A program made the translations under genes and the position numbers. From the NCBI GenBank assembly GCA_964478975.1, contig CAYZKQ010000001.1, positions 1 through 53,016 of the forward strand: a stretch of DNA of 53,016 nt, written 5' to 3'. How positions within the stretch are numbered: position 1 is the stretch's first letter; every line of letters starts with the position of its first letter. The notes beneath the pieces are model-generated. The model ran no database searches, was not told where the DNA came from, and saw nothing but the letters and a program-made list of their open reading frames with translations. This document shows, piece by piece, positions 2,581 to 49,564 of the stretch. The DNA comes from an uncultured Vicinamibacterales bacterium. GTDB lineage: Bacteria; Acidobacteriota; Vicinamibacteria; Vicinamibacterales; JAHECP01.

Positions 2581-3743
2581 TGCCGCGCGCCACCTTCCTG
2601 TTCCGCGGGCCCTCGTCGTTCTCCGGCTGGCGCCGCGTCCTGTTCCTGGCACGCAAGGAGCTCATTGAGCTCAGGCGGGATCGGCGGCTGTTCTTCATCG
2701 TGATCGCCGCGCCCATCATCCAGTTGACGCTGCTCGGCTACGCGGCCACGACCGACGTGCGCAACGTGCCGGTCGTGGTGGCCGACGGGGACCGCTCGCG
2801 CCAGAGCCGCGCGCTCATCGGCCGGCTCGAGGCCTCGCCCTACTTCGAGGTGGTCGACACGGTCACGACCGTGGGGCAGATCGACGGCTACCTGCAGCGA
2901 GGGCTGGCGTGGATGGCCCTGTCGATCCCCCCGGGCTACGGGCGCCGCGTCGACGCCGGCGAAGGGGCCGCGGTACAGGTCGTGGCCGACGGCACGGACG
3001 GCAGCTCCACGACGGTGGCGCTCGGCTACGCGGTGAACCTCGTGGCTGGCCACGCGCAGGAGCTGCAGCGCGAGCGGCGGCCGACCCAGACGGCGCGGTC
3101 GCCCCTGGACGTGGAGGTCCGCGTCTGGTTCAACCCCGAGCTCGACAGCCGCGATTTCATGATCCCGGGCGTGCTCGCGTTGCTCCTGATGGTCGTGACG
3201 GCCAATCTGTCGGCCATGGCGATCGTGCGGGAGCGCGAAGCCGGCACCTTCGAGCAGCTCGCGGTCACCCCGCTCCGGCGGTGGGAGCTCATCGTCGGCA
3301 AGCTGTTGCCGTTCGCCCTCGTGGGCATGCTCGATGTCCTCCTCGTCACCGGCGTCGCCATCGGGTGGTTCGAGGTGCCGCTCAAGGGCAGCTTCGCGCT
3401 GCTCGTGGCGATGAGCGGCGTCTACCTGCTCACGACTCTCGGGGTCGGCCTGTTCGTGTCGACCGTCTCGTCCACCCAGCAGCAGGCGATGCTGACCGCC
3501 GTGTTCTTCTTCTTCTTCCCGATGCTGTATCTGTCCGGTTTCGTGTTTCCGATCGAGAACATGCCGCGAACGATTCAGCCGCTCACCTACCTCGTGCCGC
3601 TCCGGTACTACCTCGTCATCGTCCGGGGGATTTTCCTGAAGGGGGTGGGGCTGGACACGCTGTGGCCCGAGGCCCTCGCGCTGGGGGGGGGCCTGGGGAT
3701 TCTGGGGCTGGCGGTGGCGCGATCGCGGAAGCGGCTGGATTGA
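2580..3743 (+). CDS. ABC-2 type transporter permease (paralogue of the preceding gene)
   Basis: GTG 2580 overlaps the TAG of the previous gene. It has the LARKELIELRRDRRLFFIVIAAPIIQL motif and the same architecture as 1471-2580. The exact start is uncertain. Confidence 0.82.
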   Translation: MPRATFLFRGPSSFSGWRRVLFLARKELIELRRDRRLFFIVIAAPIIQLTLLGYAATTDVRNVPVVVADGDRSRQSRALIGRLEASPYFEVVDTVTTVGQIDGYLQRGLAWMALSIPPGYGRRVDAGEGAAVQVVADGTDGSSTTVALGYAVNLVAGHAQELQRERRPTQTARSPLDVEVRVWFNPELDSRDFMIPGVLALLLMVVTANLSAMAIVREREAGTFEQLAVTPLRRWELIVGKLLPFALVGMLDVLLVTGVAIGWFEVPLKGSFALLVAMSGVYLLTTLGVGLFVSTVSSTQQQAMLTAVFFFFFPMLYLSGFVFPIENMPRTIQPLTYLVPLRYYLVIVRGIFLKGVGLDTLWPEALALGGGLGILGLAVARSRKRLD

Positions 3744-3770
3744 CGGACAGGGCGCGCCGTCCCGCCGCCC

Positions 3771-4880
3771 TCACGCGGCGCGCGCCGCGAGGACGAGCTG
3801 CCGGATCATCCACGCGAGCGTCACGCCCGCGGCCGCGAGCAGGACGGCGAACAGCACGATCGCGCCCCACTGGGGTGCGACCCACGAGGCCGGCGCGAAG
3901 CCCGCCGCCTCGATGGCGGCCCGGCGGACGTGGTCCCGCGTCACCACCATGCAGGCGACCGAGAGCACGGCGGCGGCGGCGCCGCCACGGACGAACGGTG
4001 CGGGCCGCGGGGACGCCATGCCTCCGATCATCAACGCCACCGCGGCGACGCCAGCCGCGACGCCGGCGGCGAGGACGGCGCCAGCCGCCGGATCCGCGCC
4101 GCCCACGAGGTGCTCGATCGTCGGGCGCGGCAGCGCGCCCAGCCACCAGAAACCCACCAGAACATTCAGCATCGTGGCCGCGACGAACCACACGCTCCCG
4201 CGGCGCACGGCCCACGTGCCGAAGGCCGGCGCGCGCGACCGGACGCCGAGGCCGCCGAGCGCCGTCGCCAGGCCGGAGACCGCCACGGCGCCGAGCAGCA
4301 TGTGCAGAAACCGTGGCACGAGCGCCGGATCGCCCAGGGCGAGGTGCAGGCCACGCGGATCGGCGTGATACCGCGCGGCGAGCTCGTCGGGGCGCAGCAT
4401 CACGCTCATGTTGGTCGAGTAGATGACGCCGACGCCGATCAGGACGACCGCCACCGCGCCGGCGAGCGCGGCCGAGCAGCGGGACGACGACGTGCCCTGG
4501 AAGGCCAGCGCGTACGCTCCGTAGTAGGCCGCGATGAGCAAGAAGATCACCGACAGCCACGCCCACGCCATCACTACAGAGGAGGCGAAGAAGAGCCGCC
4601 CGTAGAGGACCTGGAGAAACAGCAGCGCGGCGACGCCGAGCGTGACCGTGGCGGCGAAGAGCACGGGCAGCGCCGCCGCCCACCGGCGGGCGAGCTCGCC
4701 GTCGTGGCCGTGGGGCGAACTCCGCGCGCGTACCCGGGCCACCGCGGCCAGGATGGCGCCACCGAGGAGCAGATTCATCGCCAGCGCGTGGAGCAGGAAC
4801 GTCAACAGAAGCCACGCCTGGAGGAACCACACCGGCGCGGGCAGCGGCAGGGGATCGGGTTGAGGCAGGCCGGGGGTCAT
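3771..4880 (-). CDS. Polytopic inner-membrane protein of unknown family (last gene of the por/nfn/cytochrome operon)
   Basis: ATG at 4880 overlaps the stop of the upstream gene (ATGA). It is 369 aa with roughly 9-10 hydrophobic segments (e.g. WFLQAWLLLTFLLHALAMNLLLGGAILAAV, VMAWAWLSVIFLLIAAYYGAYALAF). I could not assign any catalytic motif. Confidence 0.7.
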   Translation of the reverse strand: MTPGLPQPDPLPLPAPVWFLQAWLLLTFLLHALAMNLLLGGAILAAVARVRARSSPHGHDGELARRWAAALPVLFAATVTLGVAALLFLQVLYGRLFFASSVVMAWAWLSVIFLLIAAYYGAYALAFQGTSSSRCSAALAGAVAVVLIGVGVIYSTNMSVMLRPDELAARYHADPRGLHLALGDPALVPRFLHMLLGAVAVSGLATALGGLGVRSRAPAFGTWAVRRGSVWFVAATMLNVLVGFWWLGALPRPTIEHLVGGADPAAGAVLAAGVAAGVAAVALMIGGMASPRPAPFVRGGAAAAVLSVACMVVTRDHVRRAAIEAAGFAPASWVAPQWGAIVLFAVLLAAAGVTLAWMIRQLVLAARAA

Positions 4881-6595
4881 CGATCGCGCTCCTGGATCCG
4901 AGGCGCCTCGAGGCCGGCGAGGTACTCGGCGACCGCCCGCCGTTCGGCGTCGGTGCCCTCGAACGGGGGCATGAGCTCGCTGACCTCGGGCAGCCGGCCG
5001 ATCAGGTCGATGAGCTCGTCGAGCCGGCGGCCGCGGCCGGCGATCGGGAAGTCGCCGCCCGGGCCGTGGCACGCGCCGCAGTGCTCCTCGAAGTAGCGTT
5101 CCCCGAGCGTCGCCGCCGCCGCCCGCGCGGCACTCGCCCCGCCGAGGCTCGCCAGGTACGCCGCCAGCGCGCGGCGCTCCTCGGCGGTCCCGACGAAGGG
5201 GGGCATGCGGCGCCCGCGCCACGTCTCGAGCCGCAGGTCGGGATAATCCCAGCCCACCGGACGGCCGCCGGCGTCGACCGGGCGCGCGAGGCGCGCGAGC
5301 ACGCCGGAGAGCGCGGCCGCGCTCCGGCCACTCACAAGCTTGCGGATTCCGAGGTAGCCGTCGATCGTGTGGCACGCGGCGCACTCGCGCACGAAGAGTG
5401 CGCGTCCAGCCGCGAGCAGGCGGTCAGGGTCGCCGGTGTTCGTCGGTTCCACGCCCGGCCGCCCCCAGAGACTCGCGGCCAGTACCCCGCGCGCGTTCAG
5501 CGCGTCGATCGCGAACGGATCGGGCGCCACCCGGTCCCGGGCCGCGGTCGCGGGCGGTGGCAGGCGCACGCTGTTGACGAACATGTACCGGCCGATCACG
5601 TACGGCTTGCGCAGATCCTCGCGCACCCACTCGGCCCCGCCGACGGCGGCGAGGCCCAGGAGCATGAGCGAGGCGGCGGCGCCGCGCCCGTACCGCCGCG
5701 GACGCCCCCACACGATGGCGGCGGTTCCGGCCGCGAGGAGCGCGCACGCCGCCACGGCCACGCCCGCCGCGCGCTGCGCGACCGGATGGCCGCTCGCCGC
5801 CCCTTTCGCGATCGCACGCACGAGCGCCGCGAGGCCATCTCCGGTCACGCCGAAGATCTCCCGCACCGGCACGCCCGCCCCCGCGGCAGCGGTCAGGTAC
5901 CACACCGTCGCCGCCGGCAGGAGCACCGCGGCTGGGGCGATCCAGCCGAGGCCCGCGTCGCGCGCCACCCGGACTTTGAGCTCCGGGTCCCGCGTCCACG
6001 CGGCGACCGCCAGCGCGTAGAGCCCGGCGAGACCGACGGCCCCGAGCGTCCGGAGCACGAGCGCGGGCCAGTAGGTGGGGTTGAAAAACGCGTCCCACAG
6101 GCTGCGCGTCACGAGCCACCGCCCGGGCGTCAGCATGAAGGTCAGGATCCCGTTGATGATCGCCAGCGACGCCCAGGCGGCCGCGAAGTAGATCCAGCCG
6201 ACCGCCAGGTGCGTCCGGGGATCGAGTCGGTCCCACCCGTAGGCGTAGACCAGGGCCGCGGCGATCTCGACGACGAAGAACGTCCACTCGATCGCCCAGA
6301 CCCAGACGAAGGCGTTGATGAGCGCCGAGGTGGCCGCGGGCTGGACCAGGCCGATCGTGAACCAGATGCCGACGCCCGTCAGGGCGCCGAACACCAGCGT
6401 CAGGAGCACGAAGAAGCGGCTGAGCCGCCGGACGAACGCGAGGAGCGCCGCGTCCTCCCGCCGGCGCGCCCGGCGTTCGGCCAGGACGAGGAACAGGCCG
6501 CCGCCGACCGCGAAGTGCGACACGAAGACGTGGACGATCGCGACCCCCGCGATGAGCAAGCCTGCGGCCGGGAGCTCCCAGATCGGGTAGTTCAT
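4877..6595 (-). CDS. Cytochrome bd subunit-I (CydA)-like membrane domain fused to two C-terminal class-I c-type cytochrome domains
   Basis: ATG 6595 overlaps the porB stop (ATGA). The N-terminal polytopic part has IVHVFVSHF, AIEWTFFVVE and GWDRL, which align by eye with the E. coli CydA helix 1-4 core. The C-terminal part has two CxxCH sites (CAACH, CGACH). Each is followed by MPPF-GT-EERRA-A-YLA, indicating a tandem domain duplication. Confidence 0.8.
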   Translation of the reverse strand: MNYPIWELPAAGLLIAGVAIVHVFVSHFAVGGGLFLVLAERRARRREDAALLAFVRRLSRFFVLLTLVFGALTGVGIWFTIGLVQPAATSALINAFVWVWAIEWTFFVVEIAAALVYAYGWDRLDPRTHLAVGWIYFAAAWASLAIINGILTFMLTPGRWLVTRSLWDAFFNPTYWPALVLRTLGAVGLAGLYALAVAAWTRDPELKVRVARDAGLGWIAPAAVLLPAATVWYLTAAAGAGVPVREIFGVTGDGLAALVRAIAKGAASGHPVAQRAAGVAVAACALLAAGTAAIVWGRPRRYGRGAAASLMLLGLAAVGGAEWVREDLRKPYVIGRYMFVNSVRLPPPATAARDRVAPDPFAIDALNARGVLAASLWGRPGVEPTNTGDPDRLLAAGRALFVRECAACHTIDGYLGIRKLVSGRSAAALSGVLARLARPVDAGGRPVGWDYPDLRLETWRGRRMPPFVGTAEERRALAAYLASLGGASAARAAAATLGERYFEEHCGACHGPGGDFPIAGRGRRLDELIDLIGRLPEVSELMPPFEGTDAERRAVAEYLAGLEAPRIQERDR

Positions 6596-7476
6596 CGCGC
6601 GGCGTGGCTCAGGATGTCGTGCCAGCGCTGGTCGACCGCCTGGCGCACCTGTTCCAGGGCGTCCGGGTCGTTCACCAGGTCGCGGAAGCGACCCTGGCCT
6701 CGCAGATATTCCTCGATCGCTACCGGCGCCGGGTTGACGGTCAGCCGCCAGGTGCGGCCGTCCTCGACCTCGACGAGGGGGAAGACGCGCGCGGCGACGG
6801 CGAGGCGCACGTAGCGGATCGCGTGCTCCGAGGGAATCTTCCACCCGGGCGGACAGGGCGAGAGCAGGTGGATGAAGCGCGTCCCGGTGACCCGCCTGGC
6901 GCGCTGGAGTTTCGCCACCAGGTCGTCCGGATACGCGACCGTGGCCGTGGCGGCGTACGGGATCCGGTGCGCCACCATGATGGCGAGCAGGTCCTTCTTC
7001 GGCTGGGCCTTCCGCCCCGGCGTCGTGGTCGTCCACGCGCCCATCGGCGTGGCCGAGCTCCGCTGGATCCCGGTGTTCATGTAGGCTTCGTTGTCGTAAC
7101 AGATGTAGATGAAGTCCTCGTTCCGCTCGGCGGCGGCCGAGAGCGCCTGGATCCCGATGTCGAACGTGCCGCCGTCGCCGGCCCACGCGACGACCGTCGT
7201 CTCGCGGTCGCCCTTGAGGTCCAGCGCCGCGCGGACGCCCGACGCGGCGGCCGCCGCCGACGCGAACGGCGTGTGCATGACGGGCACCCCGGCGGCGCTG
7301 TAGGGCGACGGCCCGTCGATGATCGACCAGCAGCACGCCGGGATGACGAGCACGGTCCGGCGGCCGAGCGCCTTGAGGACGAGGCGCATGGCGAGGGCCG
7401 CGCCGCAGCCCGCGCACCCGAGGTGCCCGGGGGCGAGGATCTCGACGTCGGGAACGGCGTAGGTGGCCTGCGTCAT
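6592..7476 (-). CDS. porB: 2-oxoacid:ferredoxin oxidoreductase beta subunit (TPP-binding)
   Basis: TPP motif WAGDGGTFDIGIQALSAAAERNEDFIYICYDNEAYMNTG. Cys ligands occur in GCAGCG, PACCW and SPCPPGW. ATG 7476 overlaps the porA stop. Confidence 0.9.
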   Translation of the reverse strand: MTQATYAVPDVEILAPGHLGCAGCGAALAMRLVLKALGRRTVLVIPACCWSIIDGPSPYSAAGVPVMHTPFASAAAAASGVRAALDLKGDRETTVVAWAGDGGTFDIGIQALSAAAERNEDFIYICYDNEAYMNTGIQRSSATPMGAWTTTTPGRKAQPKKDLLAIMVAHRIPYAATATVAYPDDLVAKLQRARRVTGTRFIHLLSPCPPGWKIPSEHAIRYVRLAVAARVFPLVEVEDGRTWRLTVNPAPVAIEEYLRGQGRFRDLVNDPDALEQVRQAVDQRWHDILSHAAR

Positions 7477-8630
7477 GGCTTCAACCCCACCCACAGGCTG
7501 TCGTGCGACGGCCGGTCGTGCGCCCTAGCATCGTCGAGCACCGCGTCGAGCGTATCGGGCGTCACGTCGCGGCCGCCGAGGCCGGCGATATACGAGAACA
7601 CGACCGGCGCGGACGGCTGGTTGCAGAACGCCGCGCGGATCTCGGACGCCATGATGCCGCCGTGGCCGAACGAGAGGTTCCGGTCCACGACGGCGAGCTT
7701 GGCCGCCCGGCCGAGCAGGCGGCGCACGTGGTCGAAGGGGAAGGGCCGGAACAACCGGATCTTCGCCAGCCCGACGCGCTCGCCCCGCTGGCGCCGGGCG
7801 TCCACGACGCCGCGGGCCGTGCCGGCGATGGTCCCGGCGGTGACGAGGAGCAGGTCGGCGTCCTCGGCGCGGTAGGTGTCGAGGATCGGGTGATAGCGCC
7901 CGAAGCGCTCGCCGTACTCGCGGGCCGCCGCGTCGGCCACGCCCACCGCCGCCTGCAGGGCGCGCTCCATCCGGGCCCGCAGCTCCATGTAGCCGTCACC
8001 CGACGGGAGCCCGCCGAAGGCCCGCGGCTGGTCGACGTCGAGCGCGTAGGGCGGGGCGAACGGCGGCAGGTAGTCGTCGACGGCCGCCTGGTCGGGGATC
8101 GCGACCGGCTCTGAGGTGTGCGACAGGAAGAAGGCGTCAAGACACACCATCGCCGGCATCAGGACGCGCTCGGCCACCTTGAAGGCCTGGATGATCGTGT
8201 CGAGCACTTCCTGGTTGTTCTCGCAGTAGTACTGGATCCAGCCCGTGTCGCGCTGCGAGAGGCTGTCGGTCTGGTCGGCGAAGATGTTCCAGGGCGAGCC
8301 CAACGCCCGGTTCACGTTGGCCAGGACCACCGGCAACCGCGCGCCGGCGCACCAGTGCAGCATCTCGTGCATGTAGGCGAGGCCGTGCGAGGAGGTGGCG
8401 GTGAAGGCCCGGAGCCCCGCTTGCGACGCGCCGGCGCAGGTGGCCAGCGCGGAGTGCTCCGACTCGACGGCGACGAACCGCGCGTCGAGGCGCCCGTCGG
8501 CGCACATCTCCGAGAGCAGCTCGACGACCCCAGAGGACGGCGTGATGGGGTAGGCGGCGATCACGCGCGCCCGCGCGAGCTGCACCGCGTACGAAATCGC
8601 GTGCGTGCCCTCGATGACCTTCGTCGTCAT
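7473..8630 (-). CDS. porA: 2-oxoacid:ferredoxin oxidoreductase alpha subunit
   Basis: The N-terminus MTTKVIEGTHAISYAVQLARARVIAAYPITPSS is the classic PorA/VorA/KorA start. It is 385 aa. ATG 8630 overlaps the stop of the upstream fusion gene. Confidence 0.9.
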   Translation of the reverse strand: MTTKVIEGTHAISYAVQLARARVIAAYPITPSSGVVELLSEMCADGRLDARFVAVESEHSALATCAGASQAGLRAFTATSSHGLAYMHEMLHWCAGARLPVVLANVNRALGSPWNIFADQTDSLSQRDTGWIQYYCENNQEVLDTIIQAFKVAERVLMPAMVCLDAFFLSHTSEPVAIPDQAAVDDYLPPFAPPYALDVDQPRAFGGLPSGDGYMELRARMERALQAAVGVADAAAREYGERFGRYHPILDTYRAEDADLLLVTAGTIAGTARGVVDARRQRGERVGLAKIRLFRPFPFDHVRRLLGRAAKLAVVDRNLSFGHGGIMASEIRAAFCNQPSAPVVFSYIAGLGGRDVTPDTLDAVLDDARAHDRPSHDSLWVGLKP

Positions 8631-10339
8631 CGCGGTTCCTCGGGCAGAAGCGTCAGGGCGCCGCGGGGGCACTCGGCGGCGCAGATGCCGCAGCCCTTGC
8701 AGTGGGCGAGGTCGATCGTGTAGCGCCCGGCGCCGTCGCGCGCGACGGCAGCGTCGGGGCAGAACACCCGGCAGTTGTCGCAGCTCGTGCACGCCCCGCA
8801 CGTCACGCAGCGCCGCGCTTCGGCGACGGCCTGCGCCCACGCGAGCCCGCCCACCACCTCGGTGAAATCGCGGACGGCCTGCGCCGGCGGGACGAGCGGC
8901 GGCCGAACGCGGGGCGCGCGCGGGACATAGAAGAAGTTGAGGTCGCCCGGCCCGACCCGCACCGCGTCCGCGGCGTCGCCGAGCGCCCGACCCGCAAGCC
9001 ACGCGTCGATCGCCTCCGCCGCGCGCCGGCCCGACCCGATCGCCTCCACCACCGTGCCCGCCCCCGTCGCCGCGTCGCCGCCGGCGAAGACCGCCGCCCG
9101 GCTCGTGCGGCCCCAGCGGTCTGCCAGCAGACGTCCGCCCGCCGCCTCGACCAGGTCCGCGACCAGCGAGGTCTCCACCTCCTCGCCGATCGCGGTGAAC
9201 GCGTGGTCGGCGGCCAGCTCGAAGGTGCTCCCCGGGATGGGCTCCGGCCGGCGCCGGCCGGACGCGTCCGGTTCCCCGGGGCGCATCCGCTGGCACTCGA
9301 CGGCGGCGAGCCGTCCGCCCCGTTCGACGAAGCGCACCGGCGCCGCGTGGAAGATGAACGCGATCCCCTCAGCTTCCGCCTGCGCGATCTCGTCGGGGTG
9401 CGCCGGCATGTCCTCGCGGGCGCGCCGATACACGATCGTCGCCGCCGCCCCCAGCCGCACCGCCGCCCGGGCCGCGTCGAGGGCCGTGTTGCCGCCGCCC
9501 ACCACGACCGCGGGGCCGCCGAGCGAGGCCGCCGATCCCGCGTTGACCTGGCGCAGAAACTCGACGCCAGACCGGACGCCGTCCAGGTCTTCCCCAGGTA
9601 CCCCGACGCGCCGGGACCGCTGCGCCCCGATCGCCACGAACACCGCCTGGGAGTCCCGCAGCACGTCGAGCGGCCGCCCGGCCTCCACCCGGACGCCGCC
9701 GACGAAGCGGATCCCCATCGCCCGCAGCAGGTTGATCTCCTCGTCCAGCACCGCGCGCGGGAGGCGGTAGGCCGGAATTCCGTAGCGCAACATGCCGCCG
9801 GGCTCGGGCATCGCGTCGACGACCGTCACCCGGTGGCCGCGCCGGGCGAGGTGGTAGGCCGCCGTCAGGCCCGCCGGTCCCGCGCCCACGACCGCCACCG
9901 CGACACCCGACCCGCCGGCGACCTCCGCGCCGGGAAACCGCCGGCGTCTGGCTTCGTCGGCAATCGCACGCTCCACGGCATGGATCGCGACCGGCTCGTC
10001 GAACGCCAGGCGGTTGCACTCGCGCTCGCACGGGTGATAGCACACGCGCCCGCAGACGCCGGGCAGCGGGTTGTGCGCCCGGATGGTGCGCCAGGCCGCC
10101 TCGGCGTCGCCCGCGGCGGCGAGCGCGAGAAACGCCCGCACGTCGGTGCCCGCCGGGCAATCGAGATTGCAGGGCGAGGGCCGGGTCACATAGACCGGCC
10201 GGAACGTGCGCCAGTGGCCCGTCTGGAGCTCCCGGGTGCTCCGGAGCGAGACGGACATCGGCGGCCCCGGCGCGACCTCGTCGACCGGCCCGATCCGAAC
10301 CGCCGCCCGTGCCGCCGCGTCGTTCACCGTGTCTGCCAT
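8627..10339 (-). CDS. GltD/NfnB-family NAD(P)H flavoprotein fused to a PorD-type 2x[4Fe-4S] ferredoxin domain
   Basis: The N-terminus has QTGHWRTFRPVY, resembling the PorD TGxWRxFxP arm. Next comes the GltD Fe-S region (CNLDCP...NPLPGVCGRVCYHPCERECNR), with FAD fold VVGAGPAGL and NAD(P)H fold VVGGGNTALD. The C-terminus has CVTCGACTSCDNCRVFCP and CKGCGICAAECP ferredoxin motifs. It is 570 aa. Confidence 0.85.
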   Translation of the reverse strand: MADTVNDAAARAAVRIGPVDEVAPGPPMSVSLRSTRELQTGHWRTFRPVYVTRPSPCNLDCPAGTDVRAFLALAAAGDAEAAWRTIRAHNPLPGVCGRVCYHPCERECNRLAFDEPVAIHAVERAIADEARRRRFPGAEVAGGSGVAVAVVGAGPAGLTAAYHLARRGHRVTVVDAMPEPGGMLRYGIPAYRLPRAVLDEEINLLRAMGIRFVGGVRVEAGRPLDVLRDSQAVFVAIGAQRSRRVGVPGEDLDGVRSGVEFLRQVNAGSAASLGGPAVVVGGGNTALDAARAAVRLGAAATIVYRRAREDMPAHPDEIAQAEAEGIAFIFHAAPVRFVERGGRLAAVECQRMRPGEPDASGRRRPEPIPGSTFELAADHAFTAIGEEVETSLVADLVEAAGGRLLADRWGRTSRAAVFAGGDAATGAGTVVEAIGSGRRAAEAIDAWLAGRALGDAADAVRVGPGDLNFFYVPRAPRVRPPLVPPAQAVRDFTEVVGGLAWAQAVAEARRCVTCGACTSCDNCRVFCPDAAVARDGAGRYTIDLAHCKGCGICAAECPRGALTLLPEEPR

Positions 10340-10347
10340 GACGGCCT

Positions 10348-10932
10348 CTATCGCCGCGCGCGGGCCGCAGAGGCCAGCGCGGGACGCCCCCGCACGGCGC
10401 CGAACGCTTCCCGCGCCGCGGCCTGATTCGCCTCCGGCTTGACCGGCACCAGCTCGGGAATGGCCTCGAGCAGGGTCTCGAGGCGGACGAGCCGCGTGAC
10501 CGCCGCGAACGCGCCGGCCATCGCCGTGTTGACGATGGGGTTCGTGCGCGTGCCGAGGCCGTGGGTGAGCGCGATCCCCGTCGCGTCGCACGTCGCCACG
10601 CTGAAGTCGTCCGGCAGGCCCAGCGCGTCGGGCCCCCGGCTGGTGTTCACGACGATCCACCCGCCCGACTTCAGCCCGGCGGTCACGTCGGTCGCCTCCA
10701 GCAAGCCGGCGTCGAGCACGATCACGTGGTCCGGCTCGTAGACCTGGTAGTGCGCCGTGATGGGCCCCTGGTCCGCGCGCAGAAACGCCGCCACTGGCGC
10801 GCCGGTCCGTTCCGCCCCGAACGCGGGAAACGCCTGCACCTGCCAGCCCTCGCGGAACAGCGCCGTCGCCAGCAGCTTCGACGCCATCACCGCGCCCTGA
10901 CCGCCGCGCCCGTGCACCCGAATCGCCACCAC
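10348..10932 (-). CDS. porG: 2-oxoacid:ferredoxin oxidoreductase gamma subunit
   Basis: Starts VAIRVHGRGGQGAVMASKLLA (GRGGQG motif) and is 194 aa, the typical gamma subunit size. GTG start lies 3 nt after the stop of the upstream gene. Confidence 0.9.
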   Translation of the reverse strand: MVAIRVHGRGGQGAVMASKLLATALFREGWQVQAFPAFGAERTGAPVAAFLRADQGPITAHYQVYEPDHVIVLDAGLLEATDVTAGLKSGGWIVVNTSRGPDALGLPDDFSVATCDATGIALTHGLGTRTNPIVNTAMAGAFAAVTRLVRLETLLEAIPELVPVKPEANQAAAREAFGAVRGRPALASAARARR

Positions 10933-10935
10933 GGA

Positions 10936-12354
10936 TCACCACCCGTCGGGAAAGCCGTCCCGCAGATACCGGTCGATCGCCCGCGCCGCCCGCCGGCCGG
11001 CCCCCATCGCCGAAATCACCGTCGCGCCGCCCGTGACGATGTCGCCCCCGGCGAAGACGCCTTTCTTATAGGTCGCGCCCGTCCGCTCGTCGGCCTCGAT
11101 GTAGCCGCGGCGGTTCACCCGGAGGTCCGGCGTCGTGGACCGGATGAGCGGGTTCGCGCCCTGGCCGACCGCGAACACCACCGTGTCGACCTCGAGGTCG
11201 AACTCCGACCCGGGCACCGGGACGGGGCTCCGGCGGCCGGAGGCGTCCGGCTCGCCGAGCGCCATCCGGATGGCGCGCATCGCGCGCACGCGCGACCGCT
11301 CGTCGCCGAGGATCGCGACCGGCGCCGCCAGCAGGATGAACTCGACCCCTTCTTCTTCGGCGTGCGCGATCTCTTCCTCGCGCGCCGGCATTTCGTCGCG
11401 GGAACGCCGGTAGACCAGATACGCGTGCTCGGCGCCGAGCCGGAGCGCGGTCCGGACCGCGTCCATCGCCGTGTTGCCCCCGCCCACCACCGCGACCCGG
11501 CGCCCCCGGACGATGGGCGTGTCAGTTTCCGGAAAGCGGTAGGCCTGCATCAGGTTCGACCGCGTCAGGAACTCGTTCGCCGAGTAGACCCCGACCAGGT
11601 TGATGCCGGGAATCTCGGGGAAGAACGGCAGGCCGGCGCCCGTGCCGATGAACACCGCCTCGTACCCGAGCTCGCTCATGAGCTCGTCGACCGTGAACGT
11701 CCGCCCGATGACGTGGTTCGTCCGGATCTCCACGCCCAGGCGCTTGAGGGCCTCGATCTCGCGCTCGACGATCGCTTTCGGCAGCCGGAACTCGGGGATC
11801 CCGTACATCAGGACGCCCCCCGGCTTGTGGAGCGCCTCGAAGATCGTCACGCTGTGGCCCAGCCTGGCCAGGTCCGCCGCGACCGTCAGGCCCGCCGGAC
11901 CGGATCCCACGACCGCCACGCGGTGTCCCGTCGGCGGCGGCGGCGGCCCGGTGTCCGACCAGTTCATCGCCGCGGCATAGTCCGCGACGAACCGCTCGAG
12001 CCGCCCGATGGCGACGGGCTCGAACTTCACGCCCAGCGTGCATCGTTTCTCGCACTGGTCTTCCTGCGGGCACACGCGCCCGCAGATGGCCGGGAGCACG
12101 TTCTTCTCGTAGACCGTGCGAAACGCCGCCTCGAACGCGCGCTCGGCCACCTGCTGGACGAACCGGGGAATGTCGATTTCCACGGGACACCCGGCGACAC
12201 ACGGCTGGTTCTTGCAGAGGATGCAGCGATTCGCTTCCTGCACGGCGAGGTCCGGGGTGTACCCGGTGGCGACTTCCTCGAACCGCCGCCGCCGCACCTC
12301 GGGGTCGAGGCACGGCATCGGGGTTTTCGTCTTCTGCCCGATCTTCTTCGCCAC
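10936..12354 (-). CDS. NADPH-dependent glutamate synthase small-chain-like oxidoreductase (NfnB/SudA/GltD family)
   Basis: Fe-S motifs CILCKNQPCVAGCP and CGRVCPQEDQCEKRC. Dinucleotide folds VVGSGPAGL and VVGGGNTAMD. It is 472 aa. Confidence 0.9.
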   Translation of the reverse strand: MAKKIGQKTKTPMPCLDPEVRRRRFEEVATGYTPDLAVQEANRCILCKNQPCVAGCPVEIDIPRFVQQVAERAFEAAFRTVYEKNVLPAICGRVCPQEDQCEKRCTLGVKFEPVAIGRLERFVADYAAAMNWSDTGPPPPPTGHRVAVVGSGPAGLTVAADLARLGHSVTIFEALHKPGGVLMYGIPEFRLPKAIVEREIEALKRLGVEIRTNHVIGRTFTVDELMSELGYEAVFIGTGAGLPFFPEIPGINLVGVYSANEFLTRSNLMQAYRFPETDTPIVRGRRVAVVGGGNTAMDAVRTALRLGAEHAYLVYRRSRDEMPAREEEIAHAEEEGVEFILLAAPVAILGDERSRVRAMRAIRMALGEPDASGRRSPVPVPGSEFDLEVDTVVFAVGQGANPLIRSTTPDLRVNRRGYIEADERTGATYKKGVFAGGDIVTGGATVISAMGAGRRAARAIDRYLRDGFPDGW

Positions 12355-12357
12355 GGT

Positions 12358-13209
12358 TCACCTCGGCATCAGCGCCGGCGTCTGCGGGGGAGCCTGGCAC
12401 CGCTCGAGCGCCAGGCGCTCCTGCTCGCGATAGGCCGTGAGGCGCGCGGCGAGCTCGGCGAAATCCACCTGGTGACCGTCGAACTCCGGCCCGTCGACAC
12501 AGACGAACTTCGGCCGCCCGCCCACCGTCACCCGGCAGCCGCCGCACATGCCGGTGCCGTCGATCATGATGGGGTTGAGGCTGACGATCGTCTTGAGGCC
12601 CAGCGGCCGCGTCAGCTCGCACACCGCGCGCATCATCGGGAGCGGCCCGATGGCGACCACCTCGTCGAAGCGACAGCCCTCGCGCAGCAACGCGCGCAGC
12701 GCGTCAGGGACGAGGCCGGGCATCCCGTACGACCCGTCGTCCGTCGTCACGATGACGCGGTCGGCCACGGCCCGCATCTCCGCTTCGAGAATCACGAGCG
12801 CGCGGGAGCGGGCCCCGATGACCGCCGTCACGCGGCCGCCGGCCGCCTTGAAGCCGCGCGCGATGGGGTAGGCCACGGCCGCGCCGATGCCGCCCCCGAT
12901 CGCGCACACCGAGCGGCCCGGCGCGATCTGCGTCGGCTGGCCCAACGGCCCGGCGATGTCGAGAATCGTGTCGCCCGGCTCGAACGCGTTCAGCTCGCGC
13001 GTCGTCTTGCCGACACCCTGGACGATGAGCGCGATCGCCCCGCTCGGCGGGTCCGCGTCGGCGATCGTGAGGGGAATGCGCTCCCCCGTTTCCCGGAGAC
13101 GGACGATCACGAACTGGCCGGGGCGGCGTTTGCGGGCGATGTGCGGGGCGTCGATCCAGAAGCGGACGATGTCGGGTGCAAGCACCTGCTTGCTGAGGAT
13201 ACGGTGCAC
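12358..13209 (-). CDS. Ferredoxin-NADP+ reductase-like FAD/NAD(P)- and [2Fe-2S]-binding protein (NfnA/SudB/PyrK family)
   Basis: VHRILSKQVLAPDIVRFWIDAP aligns with the usual N-terminus of NfnA/PyrK. C-terminal cluster motif GTGMCGGCRV...FVCVDGPEF. GTG 13209 was chosen as the start because the upstream part of the ORF is low-complexity. Confidence 0.8.
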   Translation of the reverse strand: MHRILSKQVLAPDIVRFWIDAPHIARKRRPGQFVIVRLRETGERIPLTIADADPPSGAIALIVQGVGKTTRELNAFEPGDTILDIAGPLGQPTQIAPGRSVCAIGGGIGAAVAYPIARGFKAAGGRVTAVIGARSRALVILEAEMRAVADRVIVTTDDGSYGMPGLVPDALRALLREGCRFDEVVAIGPLPMMRAVCELTRPLGLKTIVSLNPIMIDGTGMCGGCRVTVGGRPKFVCVDGPEFDGHQVDFAELAARLTAYREQERLALERCQAPPQTPALMPR

Positions 13210-13407
13210 GAGGCCCCCCGGGGTCGCTGGACAGGCGGGCGCCGGACACCCGGCGCCTCCCTTCCCGCCACTCTTCCGGGCAGCAAGCGGGATACCAGGT
13301 GGGGGCGGGGGGACGGCCGGCCCGGCCAGGCCAGCGCGGGGCTGTCGGCCCGCCGAAGGCGCCCAGGCGTGCCCGTGCCCGGGCGCCGCTGATTCTTTCG
13401 GCGTCGC

Positions 13408-13469
13408 GTGCCGGCTTTCCGGCACCCCGGATCGGAACGTTTGCGCGGGCGGGCGCGGGTTTTCCCGCG
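13408..13469 (-). terminator. Two GC hairpins downstream of the M20 gene (possible terminator / operon boundary)
   Basis: CGCGGG-TTTT-CCCGCG lies at 13454-13469, 5 nt after the stop codon. GTGCCGG-CTTT-CCGGCAC lies at 13408-13425. Neither has a U-tract. Confidence 0.3.
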
Positions 13470-13474
13470 GGGCC

Positions 13475-14986
13475 CTACCGCTTCCGATAGTCGAGGGGCG
13501 GGGGACGGTCGCCGACGAGCGGCCGGTAGACGAAGTCGGGGCCGACCCGGGCCTGGTACTCGGCCCGTGCCTTCGCGAGCAGCGCCGGATTGGTGAACAG
13601 GTCCGCCGCCGTGAGGGCCAGGGTCTTCGCCGCCACCAGCATGCCCTTGACCCCGATGCTCGTCCCGCCGGCGGCGATCGCCTGCCAGGAATGCGCCGCC
13701 GTGCCCGGCACCCACGTGGCCGCTCGCAGCCCCGTGGTCGGCACCACCCAGCTCACGTCCGCGACGTCGGTCGACCCGCCGGCTTCCTTGATCGCGAACG
13801 GCTCGATCGCGGCGGCGGTCTCGATCGGCGGCGCCTCGGGCGGCAGCGAGCGCCGCAGCGTCTCGGCGAAAGCGCGCTCCTCGGGGGAGTAGGTGACTCC
13901 GCCGACCCGGCGGAGGTTGTCGTCCATGACCCGCGCGAGCGCCTCGTTCGGCAGGATCGCGTAGATCCCGTGGATGACTTCGTGGTCCACGCTCGTGCCC
14001 GTCCCCATCGCGGCGCCCTCGGCCGCTTTGACGACGCGGTCGAAGATTTCCGCAACCTGGCGCGGGTCGGGGTGGCGCACGTAGTAGAAGACCTCCGCGA
14101 AGTCCGGGACGACGTTGGGCGCCGCGCCGCCGTTCGTGATGACGTAGTGGATGCGCGTGTCTTCGGGGACGTGCTCGCGCATCAGGTTGACCATATAGTT
14201 CATCGCTTCGACGCCGTCGAGCGCCGACCGCCCGCGCTCCGGGGCGGCCGCCGCGTGCGCCGAGACGCCGCGGAACCGGAACTTGGCGGACTTGTTGGCG
14301 AGCGAGCTCCCGGGGCTCGCGTCGTTGCGGTCGGCCGCGTGCCAGTGCAGAACGGCGTCGACATCCTTGAACAGGCCCGCGCGGACCATGTACACCTTGC
14401 CGGCGCCCCCTTCTTCGGCGGGGGTGCCGTAGAGGCGCACCGTCCCCGGCGTGCCCGTCCGCGCGAGCCACTCCTTGACCGCGATGGCCGCGGCCGTCGA
14501 CCCGGTGCCGAACAGATGATGGCCGCAGGCGTGTCCGGCCTCCTTGTGGGGGAGAGGTTTGCGCTCGGGCACGGCGTCCTGCGTGATGCCCGGGAGCGCG
14601 TCGAATTCCGCGAGGATGGCGATGACGGGCTTCCCCCGCCCGAAGCTCGCCACGAAGGCCGTGGGCATGCCCGCCACGCCCGCCTCGACGCTGAACCCGG
14701 CCGCCCGGAGCTCGGCCTGGAGCAGGGCGGAGCTCTCGACTTCTTGATAGCCGACTTCGGCCAGCTCCCAGATGCGGGTGGCGACCTCGGCGTAGTGCGC
14801 GGCGCGCGCCTCGATCGAGGTCACGAGCGCCTGCCGGTCGGGCGCGAGGCTGGCGCGCGCCGGGTCGACTTGCGCCGTGGCGACCGCCGCCGGGAGCGCG
14901 ACGAGCGCCGCCACCACGCCGCCGCCCGCGGCGCGCCACGCCCGGGCGAGGGCCCACCGAACCGCCAGTTCGCGTGCGCACGTCAT
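13475..14986 (-). CDS. M20-family amidohydrolase (AbgB / aminobenzoyl-glutamate utilisation-like), secreted
   Basis: GGAGGA RBS 5 nt before ATG 14986, followed by a signal-like N-terminus. Metal-site motif GHACGHHLFG, and overall M20D-like sequence (TPAEEGGAGK, FRGVSAHAAAAPERGRSALD). Confidence 0.85.
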   Translation of the reverse strand: MTCARELAVRWALARAWRAAGGGVVAALVALPAAVATAQVDPARASLAPDRQALVTSIEARAAHYAEVATRIWELAEVGYQEVESSALLQAELRAAGFSVEAGVAGMPTAFVASFGRGKPVIAILAEFDALPGITQDAVPERKPLPHKEAGHACGHHLFGTGSTAAAIAVKEWLARTGTPGTVRLYGTPAEEGGAGKVYMVRAGLFKDVDAVLHWHAADRNDASPGSSLANKSAKFRFRGVSAHAAAAPERGRSALDGVEAMNYMVNLMREHVPEDTRIHYVITNGGAAPNVVPDFAEVFYYVRHPDPRQVAEIFDRVVKAAEGAAMGTGTSVDHEVIHGIYAILPNEALARVMDDNLRRVGGVTYSPEERAFAETLRRSLPPEAPPIETAAAIEPFAIKEAGGSTDVADVSWVVPTTGLRAATWVPGTAAHSWQAIAAGGTSIGVKGMLVAAKTLALTAADLFTNPALLAKARAEYQARVGPDFVYRPLVGDRPPPLDYRKR

Positions 14987-15711: not shown

Positions 15712-16185
15712 ATGCTGCGATTGTCCAAGCGTGCCGATTACGCGCTCATTGCGATGCGGCATCTGGCCCTCAACGCGGACCGCGGCTGGGCCAGCGCCCG
15801 GGAGATCGCCGAGGCGTACCACGTCCCGCTGGAGCTGCTGGCGAAGGTGCTGCAGCGGCTGGTGCGGAAAGGGCTGCTGGCCTCGCACCAGGGGGTCCAC
15901 GGGGGGTACGAGCTGGCGCGCCCGGCGACGCACATCTCGGTGGCGCAGGTCATCGAGGCGATCGACGGGCCGCTCACCATGACGGCGTGTTCGGAGGCGG
16001 ACGATTCGTGCGACCAGTTTCCACACTGCAACATCCGCGACCCGCTCTGGCGCATCAAGGACCGGCTGGTCGAGGCGCTCTCGACGTGCTCGATCCAGGA
16101 GATGGCGACCGAGAGCGCGCCGGCGCCGGCGGGCGGGGCGGCACCGGTGCGGGTCGTGATGGGGCCGTCGAAGGCGACGGCGTGA
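15712..16185 (+). CDS. Rrf2-family Fe-S-binding transcriptional regulator (IscR/SufR-like)
   Basis: The N-terminus MLRLSKRADYALIAMRHLA is the Rrf2 signature. Cluster ligands CSEADDSCDQFPHC. It is the first gene of the suf operon. Confidence 0.9.
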   Translation: MLRLSKRADYALIAMRHLALNADRGWASAREIAEAYHVPLELLAKVLQRLVRKGLLASHQGVHGGYELARPATHISVAQVIEAIDGPLTMTACSEADDSCDQFPHCNIRDPLWRIKDRLVEALSTCSIQEMATESAPAPAGGAAPVRVVMGPSKATA

Positions 16186-16200
16186 GGGAGCGGACGGGTC

Positions 16201-16530
16201 ATGATCCAGGTGAGCGAGAACGCGTCGCGGCAGATCGTCAAGCTCAAGGCGAAGCAGCAGTTGCCGCCGTCGGGCGGCTTGCGCGTCGGGGTGAAGGCCG
16301 GCGGCTGTTCGGGCTTCGAGTATGTCTTTGCGTGGGAGCCGGCTCCCCGCGACACGGATATCGTGGTGGAAGGGTCGGGCGGCGCGCGGGTGTTCGTCGA
16401 CCCGAAGAGTCTCCGGCTGCTCGCGGGCACGGTGCTGGACTACGACACGAGTCTGCTCAGCCGCGGGTTCGTCCTGGCGAATCCGAACGCCAAGAGCACG
16501 TGCGGGTGCGGGCAGTCGTTCAGCGTCTGA
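16201..16530 (+). CDS. sufA: A-type Fe-S cluster carrier (HesB/IscA/SufA family)
   Basis: GGCSGFEY motif and C-terminal CGCGQSF. It is 109 aa. Confidence 0.88.
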
Positions 16531-16546
16531 CGGGACGGAGAAGACG

Positions 16547-17992
16547 ATGAGCACAGCGGTTCGGACGATCGAGGAACTGGCCACGCGGGAATACAAGTAC
16601 GGGTTCTACACGCCGGTCGAGGAGGACAAGGTTCCGCCGGGGTTGAACGAGGACGTCATCCGGCTCATCTCCGCGAAGAAGCAGGAGCCGGACTGGTTGC
16701 TCGAGTGGCGGCTCAAGGCCTACCGGGCGTGGCTCACCATGGCGGAGCCGCGGTGGGCGAACATCACTTACGGGCCGATCGACTACCAGGCGATCAGCTA
16801 CTACTCGGCGCCCAAGCGCCGGCCGACCTACAACAGCCTGGACGAGGTCGACCCGGAGATTCTGCGGACCTTCGAGAAGCTCGGCATTCCCCTCGAGGAG
16901 CAGAAGCGGCTGGCGGGGGTGGCGGTCGACGCGGTGTTCGATTCGGTGTCGGTGGCCACGACGTTCCGGGAGAAGCTCGCCGAGCTGGGGATCATCTTCT
17001 GTTCGTTCTCGGAGGCGGTGCGCGAGCATCCGGACCTGGTGCGGCAGTATCTGGGGTCTGTAGTCCCCTACACGGACAACTTCTTCGCGGCGCTCAACTC
17101 CGCCGTCTTCAGCGACGGGTCGTTCGCCTACATCCCGAAGGGCGTGCGCTGTCCGATGGAGCTGTCCACTTACTTCCGCATCAACGCGATGAACACCGGC
17201 CAGTTCGAGCGCACCCTGATCGTCGCGGACGAGGGCGCGTCGGTGAGCTACCTCGAGGGCTGCACGGCGCCGATGCGCGACGAGAACCAGCTCCACGCGG
17301 CGGTGGTCGAGCTGGTCGCGCTGGACGAGGCGACCATCAAGTACTCGACCATCCAGAACTGGTATCCCGGGGACAAGCAGGGCCAGGGCGGCATCTACAA
17401 TTTCGTGACCAAGCGCGGCAAGTGTCAGGGGCGGCGGTCGAAGATCACGTGGACGCAGGTCGAGACCGGCTCGGCCATCACGTGGAAGTACCCGAGCTGT
17501 CTGCTCATCGGCGACGAGTCCGTCGGCGAGTTCTATTCGGTCGCCACGGTGAACCACTACCAGCAGGCCGACACGGGCACGAAGATGATCCACGTGGGCC
17601 GGCGCACGAAGAGCACGATCGTCTCGAAGGGCATTTCGGCGGGGCACGGCCAGAACACCTACCGCGGGCTCGTCCGCATCGGCAAGCACGCCCAGTACGC
17701 GCGGAACTACTCGCAGTGCGACTCGCTGCTCATCGGGGACCAGTGCGGGGCGCACACCTTCCCGTACCTGGACATCCGCAACAGCACGGCGCGGGTCGAG
17801 CACGAGGCGTCGACGTCGAAGATCGGGGAGGACCAGATCTTCTACTGCCGCCAGCGCGGCCTCGGGACCGAGGACGCGGTCAACCTGATCGTCAGCGGCT
17901 TCTGCAAGGAAGTCTTCCGGGAGCTGCCGATGGAATTCGCCGTCGAGGCCCAGAAGCTGCTGAGCGTGAGCCTGGAAGGGAGTGTCGGATAA
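16547..17992 (+). CDS. sufB: Fe-S cluster assembly scaffold SufB
   Basis: 481 aa with highly conserved SufB blocks ([51 protein letters not shown]). Confidence 0.95.
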
Positions 17993-17998
17993 CGCATC

Positions 17999-18766
17999 AT
18001 GCTGGAGATTCGAGATCTGAAGGCGTCGGCCGAGGGCCGCGAGATCCTGCACGGCGTCAGCCTGTCGGTGCGGGCGGGCGAAGTCCACGCGATCATGGGC
18101 CCGAACGGCTCGGGCAAGAGCACGCTCGCGCGGGTGCTGGCGGGACACCCGGGCTACGAGGTGACCGCCGGGACGGTGCTCTACGAGGGGCGGGACCTGC
18201 TGGCGATGGACCCGGAAGAGCGCGCGCGCGAGGGGCTGTTCATGGCGTTCCAGTACCCGGTGGAGATCGCCGGGGTGAACAACGCCTACTTCTTGAAGGC
18301 GGCGCTCAACGCGCTCCGCAAGCACCGCGGCGAGCCGGAGGTGGACGCCATCGAGTTCATGACCCTCATCCGCGAAAAGGCGAAGCTGCTGGAGCTCGAC
18401 CCCGCGATGCTCAACCGCCCGGTCAACGAGGGGTTTTCGGGCGGCGAGAAGAAGCGGAACGAGATCTTCCAGATGCTGGTGCTCGAGCCGAAGCTCGCGA
18501 TCCTCGACGAGACGGATTCTGGCCTCGACATCGACGCCCTCAAGGTGGTGGCCAACGGCGTCAACGCCATGCGGAGCCCCAGCCGGGCGATCGTGGTGGT
18601 GACGCACTACCAGCGGCTGCTCAACTACATCGTGCCCGACATCGTCCACGTGCTCGTCGACGGGCGCATCGTCCGCTCGGGCGACAAGACCCTGGCCCTC
18701 GAGCTCGAAGAGAAAGGGTACGGCTGGGTCGAGGCGGAAGCGGCTGGCGCCGCCGCGCGCAGCTAG
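17999..18766 (+). CDS. sufC: Fe-S cluster assembly ATPase SufC
   Basis: Walker A GPNGSGKST, FSGGEKKRNEI, LAILDETDSGLD. Confidence 0.95.
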   Translation: MLEIRDLKASAEGREILHGVSLSVRAGEVHAIMGPNGSGKSTLARVLAGHPGYEVTAGTVLYEGRDLLAMDPEERAREGLFMAFQYPVEIAGVNNAYFLKAALNALRKHRGEPEVDAIEFMTLIREKAKLLELDPAMLNRPVNEGFSGGEKKRNEIFQMLVLEPKLAILDETDSGLDIDALKVVANGVNAMRSPSRAIVVVTHYQRLLNYIVPDIVHVLVDGRIVRSGDKTLALELEEKGYGWVEAEAAGAAARS

Positions 18767-18774
18767 GGGGAGCG

Positions 18775-21817: not shown

Positions 21818-21860
21818 GGGTCCGCAAGCCGGGCCTGTCGGCCCCGGGGAGACCCTCGAG

Positions 21861-49479: not shown

Positions 49480-49564
49480 GGGCGTCGTGGCTCCAGTGTA
49501 CCACGCGCCGCCGGCCGGCGCCGACGGTTTATGATGGTCCCGAACGCTCCACGAAACGGCTGCC

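Follow-up and report, generated by a model that had tools for sequence, protein, structure and literature searches.

Three separately conserved redox modules joined in a probable eight-gene operon of one small acidobacterial clade

Modules of the GltD type link NAD(P)H to a partner via [4Fe-4S] clusters of low potential, while the parts of a review of these modules that list GltD-like proteins name GltS, DPD, NfnB and AegA, with no fusion to a 2-oxoacid oxidoreductase (POR) given there (PMC8097209). The presence of Nfn in an aerobic acidobacterium was termed surprising in a review of that enzyme (PMC6405883). According to the sections of the defining paper that deal with it, the OR-C1a/OR-C1b family belongs to the cytochrome bd superfamily and is common in Acidobacteria (bioRxiv 10.1101/2021.01.16.426971). 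Here we describe an eight-gene cluster on the minus strand, at positions 3771-13209 of a 53,016-nucleotide stretch of DNA from an uncultured Vicinamibacterales bacterium (contig CAYZKQ010000001.1; the whole stretch is referred to below as the window), in which members of these three groups are encoded one after the other. The cluster consists of three separately conserved redox modules joined within one small acidobacterial clade, and we consider it likely that they form a co-expressed composite and not a physical supercomplex.

An original prediction, made from the DNA sequence, described eight minus-strand genes with gaps of no more than 8 nt and four ATGA start/stop overlaps. When the open reading frames (ORFs) of the window (72% G+C) were checked, the cluster was found exactly at these coordinates, with overlaps at 8627-8630 (fusion/porA), 7473-7476 (porA/porB), 6592-6595 (porB/cytochrome) and 4877-4880 (cytochrome/membrane protein), and with gaps of 8, 3 and 3 nt at the three remaining junctions. 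Domains were assigned by Pfam and NCBIfam profile searches, which upheld each of the predicted domain calls, the CydA-like and PorD assignments included. The eight genes, which probably form one transcription unit, are as follows:

12358-13209, minus strand: nfnA, 283 aa, flavin adenine dinucleotide (FAD)/[2Fe-2S] small subunit of an NfnAB transhydrogenase (NF004862, 5jca_S)
10936-12354, minus strand: nfnB, 472 aa, GltD-like FAD/2x[4Fe-4S] large subunit of NfnAB (TIGR01316, 4ylf_B)
10348-10932, minus strand: porG, 194 aa, gamma subunit of a four-subunit 2-oxoacid oxidoreductase (PF01558 POR, TIGR02175)
8627-10339, minus strand: fusion gene, 570 aa, GltD/NfnB-like flavoprotein with a PorD-type 2x[4Fe-4S] delta module (NF009410, PorD models)
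7473-8630, minus strand: porA, 385 aa, alpha subunit (POR_N and PFOR_II)
6592-7476, minus strand: porB, 294 aa, beta subunit binding thiamine pyrophosphate (TPP) (TPP_enzyme_C)
4877-6595, minus strand: cytochrome gene, 572 aa, OR-C1a-type bd-like subunit with eight transmembrane (TM) helices and two c-haem domains (Pfam, residues, AlphaFold2 (AF2) model, Foldseek)
3771-4880, minus strand: membrane protein gene, 369 aa, OR-C1b-type CydA-like paralogue and partner of the cytochrome (hhalign, AF2 model, Foldseek)

Conserved adjacency of the membrane genes and the por/nfn genes in other genomes had been proposed as a check on the original prediction, and such adjacency was found in one clade only. 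Each species was represented by a single genome in a scan for cytochrome homologues, which gave 80 loci; these belong to Acidobacteriota, Chloroflexota, Verrucomicrobiota, Bacteroidota, Calditrichota and other groups. The cytochrome and partner genes were adjacent in 73 of these, and in none of the 80 was a por or nfn homologue seen within 10 kb of the bd-like pair, a flank of at least 1.5 kb being present upstream in 64 loci and downstream in 66. The ORFs flanking the pairs fell into 131 different Pfam families, and the 25 most frequent of them included no POR, TPP or Nfn family; the sole recurrent neighbour was PsiE, in loci of the Bacteroidota type, and superoxide dismutase appeared three times. 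The reverse survey covered 80 metagenome loci with PorB homologues of 51-64% identity. The unit porG-fusion-porA-porB was kept in at least 29 of them, none of the 49 loci with at least 1.8 kb of downstream sequence carried the bd-like pair, and nfnA was near the por-fusion operon in none of the 80.

The bd-like pair varied in its own layout among these loci. In L035-L080 (Bacteroidota, Ignavibacteriota, Calditrichota and others) the partner gene comes first, followed by a cytochrome gene with a single haem-c domain, and a PsiE-family gene (about 150 aa) is often found just upstream of the pair, accounting for 11 of the 141 flanking ORFs. In Verrucomicrobiota about 1.6 kb separates the two genes, and the cytochrome gene of L165 is stand-alone, adjoining metH and a rubrerythrin-like gene.

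The lineages in which the pair directly follows porB are six: that of the window, L161/L162, L163/L164, L166, L167 and L173. Their cytochromes are identical to that of the window at 76% (L161/L162), 77% (L163/L164), 65% (L166), 62% (L167) and 60% (L173) of positions; L167 (cytochrome cluster P0040) was reached through the fusion protein. All eight genes are visible in L161 and L167, and flanking genes are shared as well, with an M20 peptidase gene upstream in L161 and ABC-2 transporter genes downstream in L161 and L167, as in the window. Close homologues are named Vicinamibacterales. In a neighbor-joining (NJ) tree the linked cytochromes form one clade and the others are all stand-alone, which points to a single acquisition of the bd-like pair, at the 3' end of an existing nfn-por operon. 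The translational coupling of porB to the cytochrome gene that had been predicted is borne out by the same 4-nt overlap in the window and in three relatives (L161, L163 and L166); the two genes are separated by 9 nt in L173 and by 75 nt in L167. A GC-rich hairpin within the 75-nt gap was considered as a terminator and rejected, its stability being no better than that of shuffled sequence (z = -1.55).

A natural deletion of the pair was found in L168/L169, the same sequence obtained from two independent samples. The gene order there is M20-nfnA-nfnB-porG-fusion-porA-porB, with the convergent ABC-2 genes coming immediately next; the six nfn-por genes are intact and the bd-like pair is missing. 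This locus is nested within the linked clade, beside L167, in the NJ tree of the fusion protein, and its PorA and PorB together are 84% identical to those of L167 vs 81% to the rest. Directly after the porB stop codon (L168 10833-10858; L169 identical) lies a scar, GCGCGTAGCGGCGTGACATAACTACCCCATCTGG. It matches the L173 junction GCGCGTAGCGGCGTGCCATGAACTACCCCATCTGG, and what survives in it is the stop of porB, the spacer of 9 nt, the start codon in damaged form and, from the cytochrome gene, codons 2-6 (NYPIW). L168/L169 has therefore lost the pair with its nfn-por genes left intact, and the oxidoreductase does not depend on the membrane proteins. The 185 nt that follow the scar resemble part of an unrelated peptidase-like gene, namely a C-terminal fragment.

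The 3' boundary of the operon is an insertion hotspot, because the two convergent operons of the window end only 27 nt apart (3744-3770) and insertions are present at this place in L161, where a nucleotidyltransferase-like ORF and an RHH/PemK toxin-antitoxin pair (12854-14437) stand between the bd-like pair and the ABC-2 genes.

The first of the three modules is NfnAB. The nfnA product scored 391.7 bits against NF004862 (cut-off 220) and 329 bits to the small subunit of Pyrococcus furiosus NfnI (5jca_S), and the nfnB product scored 599.5 bits against TIGR01316 (cut-off 471.75) and 600 bits to Thermotoga maritima NfnB (4ylf_B) over residues 9-465. Since both subunits align end to end with solved NfnAB enzymes, the two genes, which lie side by side, are taken to encode an ordinary NfnAB pair with predicted bifurcating transhydrogenase activity; the proteins originally called NfnA-like and NfnB-like are thus true NfnAB by their scores above the NCBIfam cut-offs and their closeness to solved structures. 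The place of nfnAB relative to por differs among the loci: it is upstream in the clade of the window, absent in L171, and downstream of porB in L172. Its linkage in two different gene orders suggests that Nfn and this type of oxidoreductase are functionally tied, though not universally so. The order in L172 (6432-13416) is porG-fusion-porA-porB-nfnA-nfnB, and porA and porB carry frameshifts in the assembly.

The second module comprises the alpha, beta, gamma and delta modules of a Por/Vor-type oxidoreductase, all of which were found by the profile searches. PorG matched PF01558 (POR) and reached 191 bits against TIGR02175 (cut-off 81). PorA contains POR_N and PFOR_II, but scored below the cut-off of PorA_Arch (461 vs 550) and also below that of the VorA equivalog model; PorB contains TPP_enzyme_C, but scored 392 vs 405 for the VorB-like subfamily model and 348 vs 405 for PRK11865 PorB. 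Because neither the Por nor the Vor equivalog cut-offs were reached, the substrate is not fixed by these models, and pyruvate and a branched-chain 2-oxoacid are both candidates. The delta module is built into the fusion protein, which consists of Fer4_20 and Pyr_redox_2 domains followed, at residues 514-568, by a PorD-type dicluster module. This tail is matched by the PorD_Arch and PorD_KorD models and carries two CxxCxxCxxxCP motifs at the C-terminus. The nearest solved relatives of the fusion protein are NfnB-type modules, and its tail matches the delta subunit of pyruvate:ferredoxin oxidoreductase (PFOR). A motif scan found no other ferredoxin-type CxxCxxCxxxCP ORF in the whole 53-kb window. 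A ferredoxin module within a GltD-type flavoprotein, and no free ferredoxin gene, had been predicted, and both points held.

The fusion is nevertheless not new. Residues 34-567 of its 570 match NF009410 (PRK12771, 'NAD(P)-binding protein') with 571.1 bits against a cut-off of 516, and more than 7,900 homologues were found, many of which adjoin porG, porA and porB; they are named 'NAD(P)-binding protein', 'FAD-dependent oxidoreductase' or '2-oxoacid:acceptor oxidoreductase delta subunit'. The GltD::PorD fusion is therefore a known, uncharacterised NCBIfam subfamily, and no description of its function was found in the literature. Since the delta module is part of a GltD-type flavoprotein, NAD(P)+ is a reasonable prediction for the acceptor of this oxidoreductase; and since GltD-like modules link NAD(P)H to their partners via [4Fe-4S] clusters, a chain from TPP through iron-sulfur (Fe-S) clusters and FAD to NAD(P)+ is the natural one to predict.

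The third module begins with the 572-aa cytochrome, for which an exact look-up gave no record. Its Pfam match to Cyt_bd_oxida_I spans profile positions 6-199 of 418, the N-terminal half, and is followed by two c-type domains with CxxCH motifs at 405 and 506; Met464 and Met542 are present. Residues H22, E103 and E110, which correspond to the O2-site and proton-channel residues H19, E99 and E107 of Escherichia coli, are invariant in alignments of 30 and 36 sequences, with a shortened Glu-Glu spacing of 7 residues, and Y117, Y119, H129 and S143 agree with the OR-C1a reference row, the numbering being shifted by -2 throughout. The invariant histidines of the alignment are limited to H22, H27, H129 and those of the two CxxCH motifs. 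There is no histidine at the position of H186, residues 181-184 being L, R, T and L, and the Q-loop half of CydA is absent. The AF2 model (mean predicted local distance difference test score (pLDDT) 83.7) has eight TM helices (9-45, 49-84, 86-119, 126-153, 175-198, 204-239, 271-297 and 304-329) and then two cytochrome-c-like domains, and its top 19 Foldseek matches in the PDB are bd oxidase subunits without exception. The loops at 40-49 and 298-303 are rich in arginine and indicate the cytoplasmic side. The haem-c domain, coming after eight TM helices with these cytoplasmic loops, is accordingly periplasmic, as is the N-terminus; this agrees with what is established for bd oxidases and cytochrome c maturation, c-haem being attached in the periplasm.

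With half of the CydA profile only, and with no CydB family match in Pfam, this protein is not a canonical CydAB quinol oxidase. A possible link to quinone had been suggested for it, and the absence of the quinol-binding half of CydA speaks against such a link. The features fit OR-C1a, predicted to be fed by cytochrome c and not by quinol and to reduce O2; in the sections of the defining paper on this family, oxygen reductase activity with a cytochrome c donor is likewise a prediction (bioRxiv 10.1101/2021.01.16.426971). The membrane module is thus already on record: it fits OR-C1a/OR-C1b of Murali et al. 2021, a family described bioinformatically and not biochemically.

The relationship of the 369-aa membrane protein to CydA was visible only by profile-profile and fold comparison. 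The protein had no Pfam or NCBIfam match, its family profile found no solved structure by sequence alone, and each of its 333 homologues is annotated 'hypothetical'. An hhalign comparison of its family with that of the cytochrome gave a probability of 97.1% (E 5.6e-11, 284 columns), in which H31 pairs with H22 of the cytochrome and the region of E103 is a gap. The AF2 model (pLDDT 87.8) has nine long helices, the last at 338-368; ranks 1-17 of its top 19 Foldseek matches are subunits I or II of bd oxidases, and its resemblance to subunit I is as strong as that to subunit II. We conclude that this protein is, as far as profiles and the predicted fold can tell, a CydA-like paralogue and the OR-C1b-type partner of the cytochrome.

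Signals that could drive transcription of the cluster were found upstream of nfnA:

13282-13297, minus strand: sigma-54-type -24/-12 element TGGTATCCCGCTTGCT, 73 nt upstream of the nfnA start (pattern and conservation)
13409-13424, minus strand: palindrome TGCCGGAAAGCCGGCA, about 120 nt upstream of the -24 box, a candidate site for an enhancer-binding protein (partly conserved in a four-way alignment)
13240-13255, minus strand: palindrome CGCCGGGTGTCCGGCG, between the promoter and the nfnA start, a possible operator or hairpin of the 5' untranslated region (near-invariant in the four-way alignment)

The sequence TGGTAT-N5-TTGCT is invariant upstream of nfnA in the window, L161, L167 and L168, and the two palindromes that flank it are GC-rich. 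The 53-kb window contains the pattern TGGYAY-N5-TTGCW once, against 0.00 occurrences expected by chance, and each of the related loci (L161, L167, L168) also has it once, every time before nfnA; a relaxed sigma-54 pattern found no site inside the operon. The lone conserved motif before nfnA, and the absence of any within the operon, support one eight-gene transcription unit under putative sigma-54 control. Scans of 3400-13700 for sigma-70 promoters and intrinsic terminators gave nothing above chance and are uninformative on internal signals. No sigma-54 activator of the GAFTGA type is encoded in the window.

A mechanism consistent with these observations would be the following. One sigma-54-driven transcript would string together three self-sufficient redox modules in a Vicinamibacterales-like acidobacterium. 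The first is NfnAB. In the second, electrons would leave the TPP site through successive Fe-S clusters and reach FAD and then NAD(P)+, bypassing free ferredoxin, with the fused subunit contributing the delta 2x[4Fe-4S], the GltD/NfnB-like 2x[4Fe-4S], the FAD and the NAD(P)H site. The third, OR-C1a/OR-C1b, keeps the di-haem site of O2 reduction and has no quinol site, electrons entering from the periplasm via the two c-haems; it was appended once to the 3' end of nfn-por and would be co-expressed with it and not physically wired to it. A likely benefit would be the joint production, at low oxygen, of oxygen-labile Fe-S/TPP enzymes and a high-affinity O2 consumer or terminal oxidase. Reducing equivalents may reach OR-C1 by the ordinary route, from NAD(P)H through the respiratory chain to cytochrome c.

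The original prediction went further and proposed a supercomplex of PorGDAB with its fused flavoprotein, NfnAB and the two membrane proteins, which would deliver the electrons of a 2-oxoacid to quinone, cytochrome or O2. The single recognisable promoter, the porB/cytochrome overlap shared by the window, L161, L163 and L166, and the persistence of the join over six lineages would all be expected of such an assembly. We nonetheless regard it as highly improbable, because of the distribution, the natural deletion, the variable junction, the topology and the lack of docking features: each module occurs almost everywhere apart from the other, the nested L168 lineage dropped the membrane pair and kept nfn-por intact, and gaps of 9 nt (L173) and 75 nt (L167) separate the genes even in linked lineages. 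The quinol-binding half of CydA is missing as well, and haem-c entry is periplasmic, whereas the POR and Nfn proteins are soluble and cytoplasmic, with no hydrophobic segments and no membrane or signal segments. An alignment of the linked cytochromes and membrane proteins revealed no clade-specific insertions and no added docking domain, and there is no structural basis here for electrons to pass directly from POR's Fe-S chain in the cytoplasm to the haems in the periplasm. It is very doubtful, too, that the OR-C1 pair is a dedicated, physically associated partner that attaches the NADP-linked oxidoreductase and Nfn to the membrane and takes electrons from 2-oxoacids to O2. A different coupling, in which the fused GltD-like subunit pairs with NfnA and POR replaces ferredoxin as the low-potential arm, also seems to us improbable. 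The fusion protein shares 41-43% identity with NfnB across about 400 residues and matches NfnB-type structures, and nfnAB is linked to this type of por in two orders (upstream in the clade of the window, downstream in L172); yet a complete NfnB is encoded beside NfnA, which already has its usual partner in it. Moreover, with nfnA near none of the 80 metagenome por-fusion loci and absent in L171, the fused enzyme must work without NfnA. The pairing would imply flavin-based bifurcation, by which 2-oxoacid oxidation or reductive carboxylation would be coupled to both NADH and NADPH.

The main rival to a co-expressed composite is neutral juxtaposition, in which the pair landed by chance between porB and the convergent ABC-transporter operon and is transcribed by read-through from the nfn-por promoter with no functional relation to the genes before it. 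What lies next to the pair differs greatly from genome to genome, as such a history would lead one to expect; the junction varies, the pair was cleanly lost once, and the toxin-antitoxin and other small insertions of L161 lie at the same 3' boundary. However, the arrangement has been kept in six lineages with cytochrome identities down to about 60%, and the overlap has been kept in four with no internal promoter motif, which points to selection for co-expression; we therefore hold chance placement to be unlikely. Several points weigh, in turn, against the co-expressed composite itself. The 4-nt overlap persists in four lineages whose cytochromes are only 65-77% identical; such retention goes beyond a recent accident and shows that tight co-expression is selected for. 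In L172, 35 nt after nfnB, a 110-aa monohaem cytochrome c with a signal peptide (CSLCH) is encoded, which could hint at a recurrent link of POR/Nfn with c-type cytochromes. The trees of the cytochrome and the fusion protein were built by NJ and carry no support values, and low oxygen as the rationale in a soil acidobacterium is a suggestion drawn only by analogy. Finally, the literature yielded no biochemical characterisation of any PRK12771 fusion or OR-C member, for which reason both the acceptor of the oxidoreductase and the O2-reductase activity of OR-C are predictions. The small cytochrome c of L172 was also compared with the haem-c domains of the window as a possible relative, and this was rejected, no similarity being detected (tblastn, E 1e-3).

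The surroundings of the cluster contain further redox genes. Divergent from the M20 peptidase/nfn-por side, positions 15712-22283 (plus strand) encode an Rrf2-family regulator, SufB, SufC and further Fe-S assembly genes, and this Rrf2/Suf neighbourhood is also retained in L161/L170, so that the operon of a cluster-rich enzyme adjoins an Fe-S assembly operon. Elsewhere in the window are genes for CofD (2-phospho-L-lactate transferase of F420 biosynthesis; 43155-44120, minus strand), a molybdopterin oxidoreductase (47458-49587, minus strand) and an NADH dehydrogenase of the NDH-2 type (49565-50872, plus strand). Several peptidase genes (M20, S9, S15) point to amino-acid catabolism.

The result opens no new kind of system, and the supercomplex is unlikely. 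Two of the three modules are, however, widespread and have never been studied at the bench. With thousands of homologues, the GltD::PorD-type oxidoreductase would be a bacterial 2-oxoacid:NAD(P)+ enzyme that avoids ferredoxin, and in the OR-C oxidases an entire branch of the bd superfamily is without known physiology. Their co-transcription in this clade with oxygen-labile POR and Nfn offers a testable hint that OR-C oxidases may serve in low-oxygen respiration or oxygen scavenging in soil Acidobacteria, and the overlap, the gap and the deletion are natural variants for comparison. A physical assembly of POR/Nfn with OR-C1, were it true, would provide the first physiological role for any OR-C oxidase.

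Among known systems, OR-C1a (Murali, Gennis, Hemp 2021) shares with the cytochrome the CydA-like subunit of eight TM helices, the C-terminal CxxCH haem-c domains and an adjacent CydA-like paralogue, as well as H22/E103/E110 with 7-residue Glu-Glu spacing, the Tyr pair, the His and the Ser, and the lack of the quinol-side ligands H186 and M393. The 369-aa protein is likewise similar to OR-C1b in being a CydA-like paralogue beside OR-C1a that has no proton-channel glutamates, but it is predicted to have nine helices, and eight are stated in the description of OR-C1b within the defining paper (bioRxiv 10.1101/2021.01.16.426971). The clade of the window differs from OR-C1 in having the pair appended to an nfn-por operon; pyruvate does not occur in the supplementary files of that paper, and its main-text passages on operon context mention no POR. 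Compared with NfnAB (4YLF; 5JCA), with which both subunits align end to end, the genes of the window differ in sharing an operon with a POR and in coming from a mostly aerobic phylum.

The oxidoreductase resembles PorABGD/VorABGD in its alpha, beta and gamma subunits and delta-type 2x[4Fe-4S] module and in its class of gene order, and the subfamily models TIGR02175 and TIGR02179 match its proteins strongly. It differs in that delta forms the last 55 residues of a 570-aa GltD-like flavoprotein, the known delta being a free protein of 8-10 kDa, in that its scores lie below the PorA, PorB and Vor equivalog cut-offs, and in its predicted acceptor, which is NAD(P)+ instead of the ferredoxin of the known systems. 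The fusion protein matches NF009410/PRK12771 over its full length with no structural difference, this family being a sequence model only. The models for PadE, PadF, PadG and PadI of PadEFGHI, a phenylglyoxylate:NAD+ oxidoreductase, match proteins of the window weakly to moderately, with scores far under the cut-offs (149 vs 300, 39 vs 150, 305 vs 700 and 220 vs 700). The single-chain PFOR and the eukaryotic pyruvate:NADP+ oxidoreductase (PNO) differ more plainly, since the window reaches 152 vs 911 for TIGR02176 and its subunits are on separate genes; the flavoprotein of PNO is of the cytochrome-P450-reductase type and not of the GltD type. With PadEFGHI and PNO the enzyme of the window nevertheless shares its general plan, in which a core of the 2-oxoacid:ferredoxin oxidoreductase (OFOR) type would pass electrons through a bound flavoprotein to a pyridine nucleotide.

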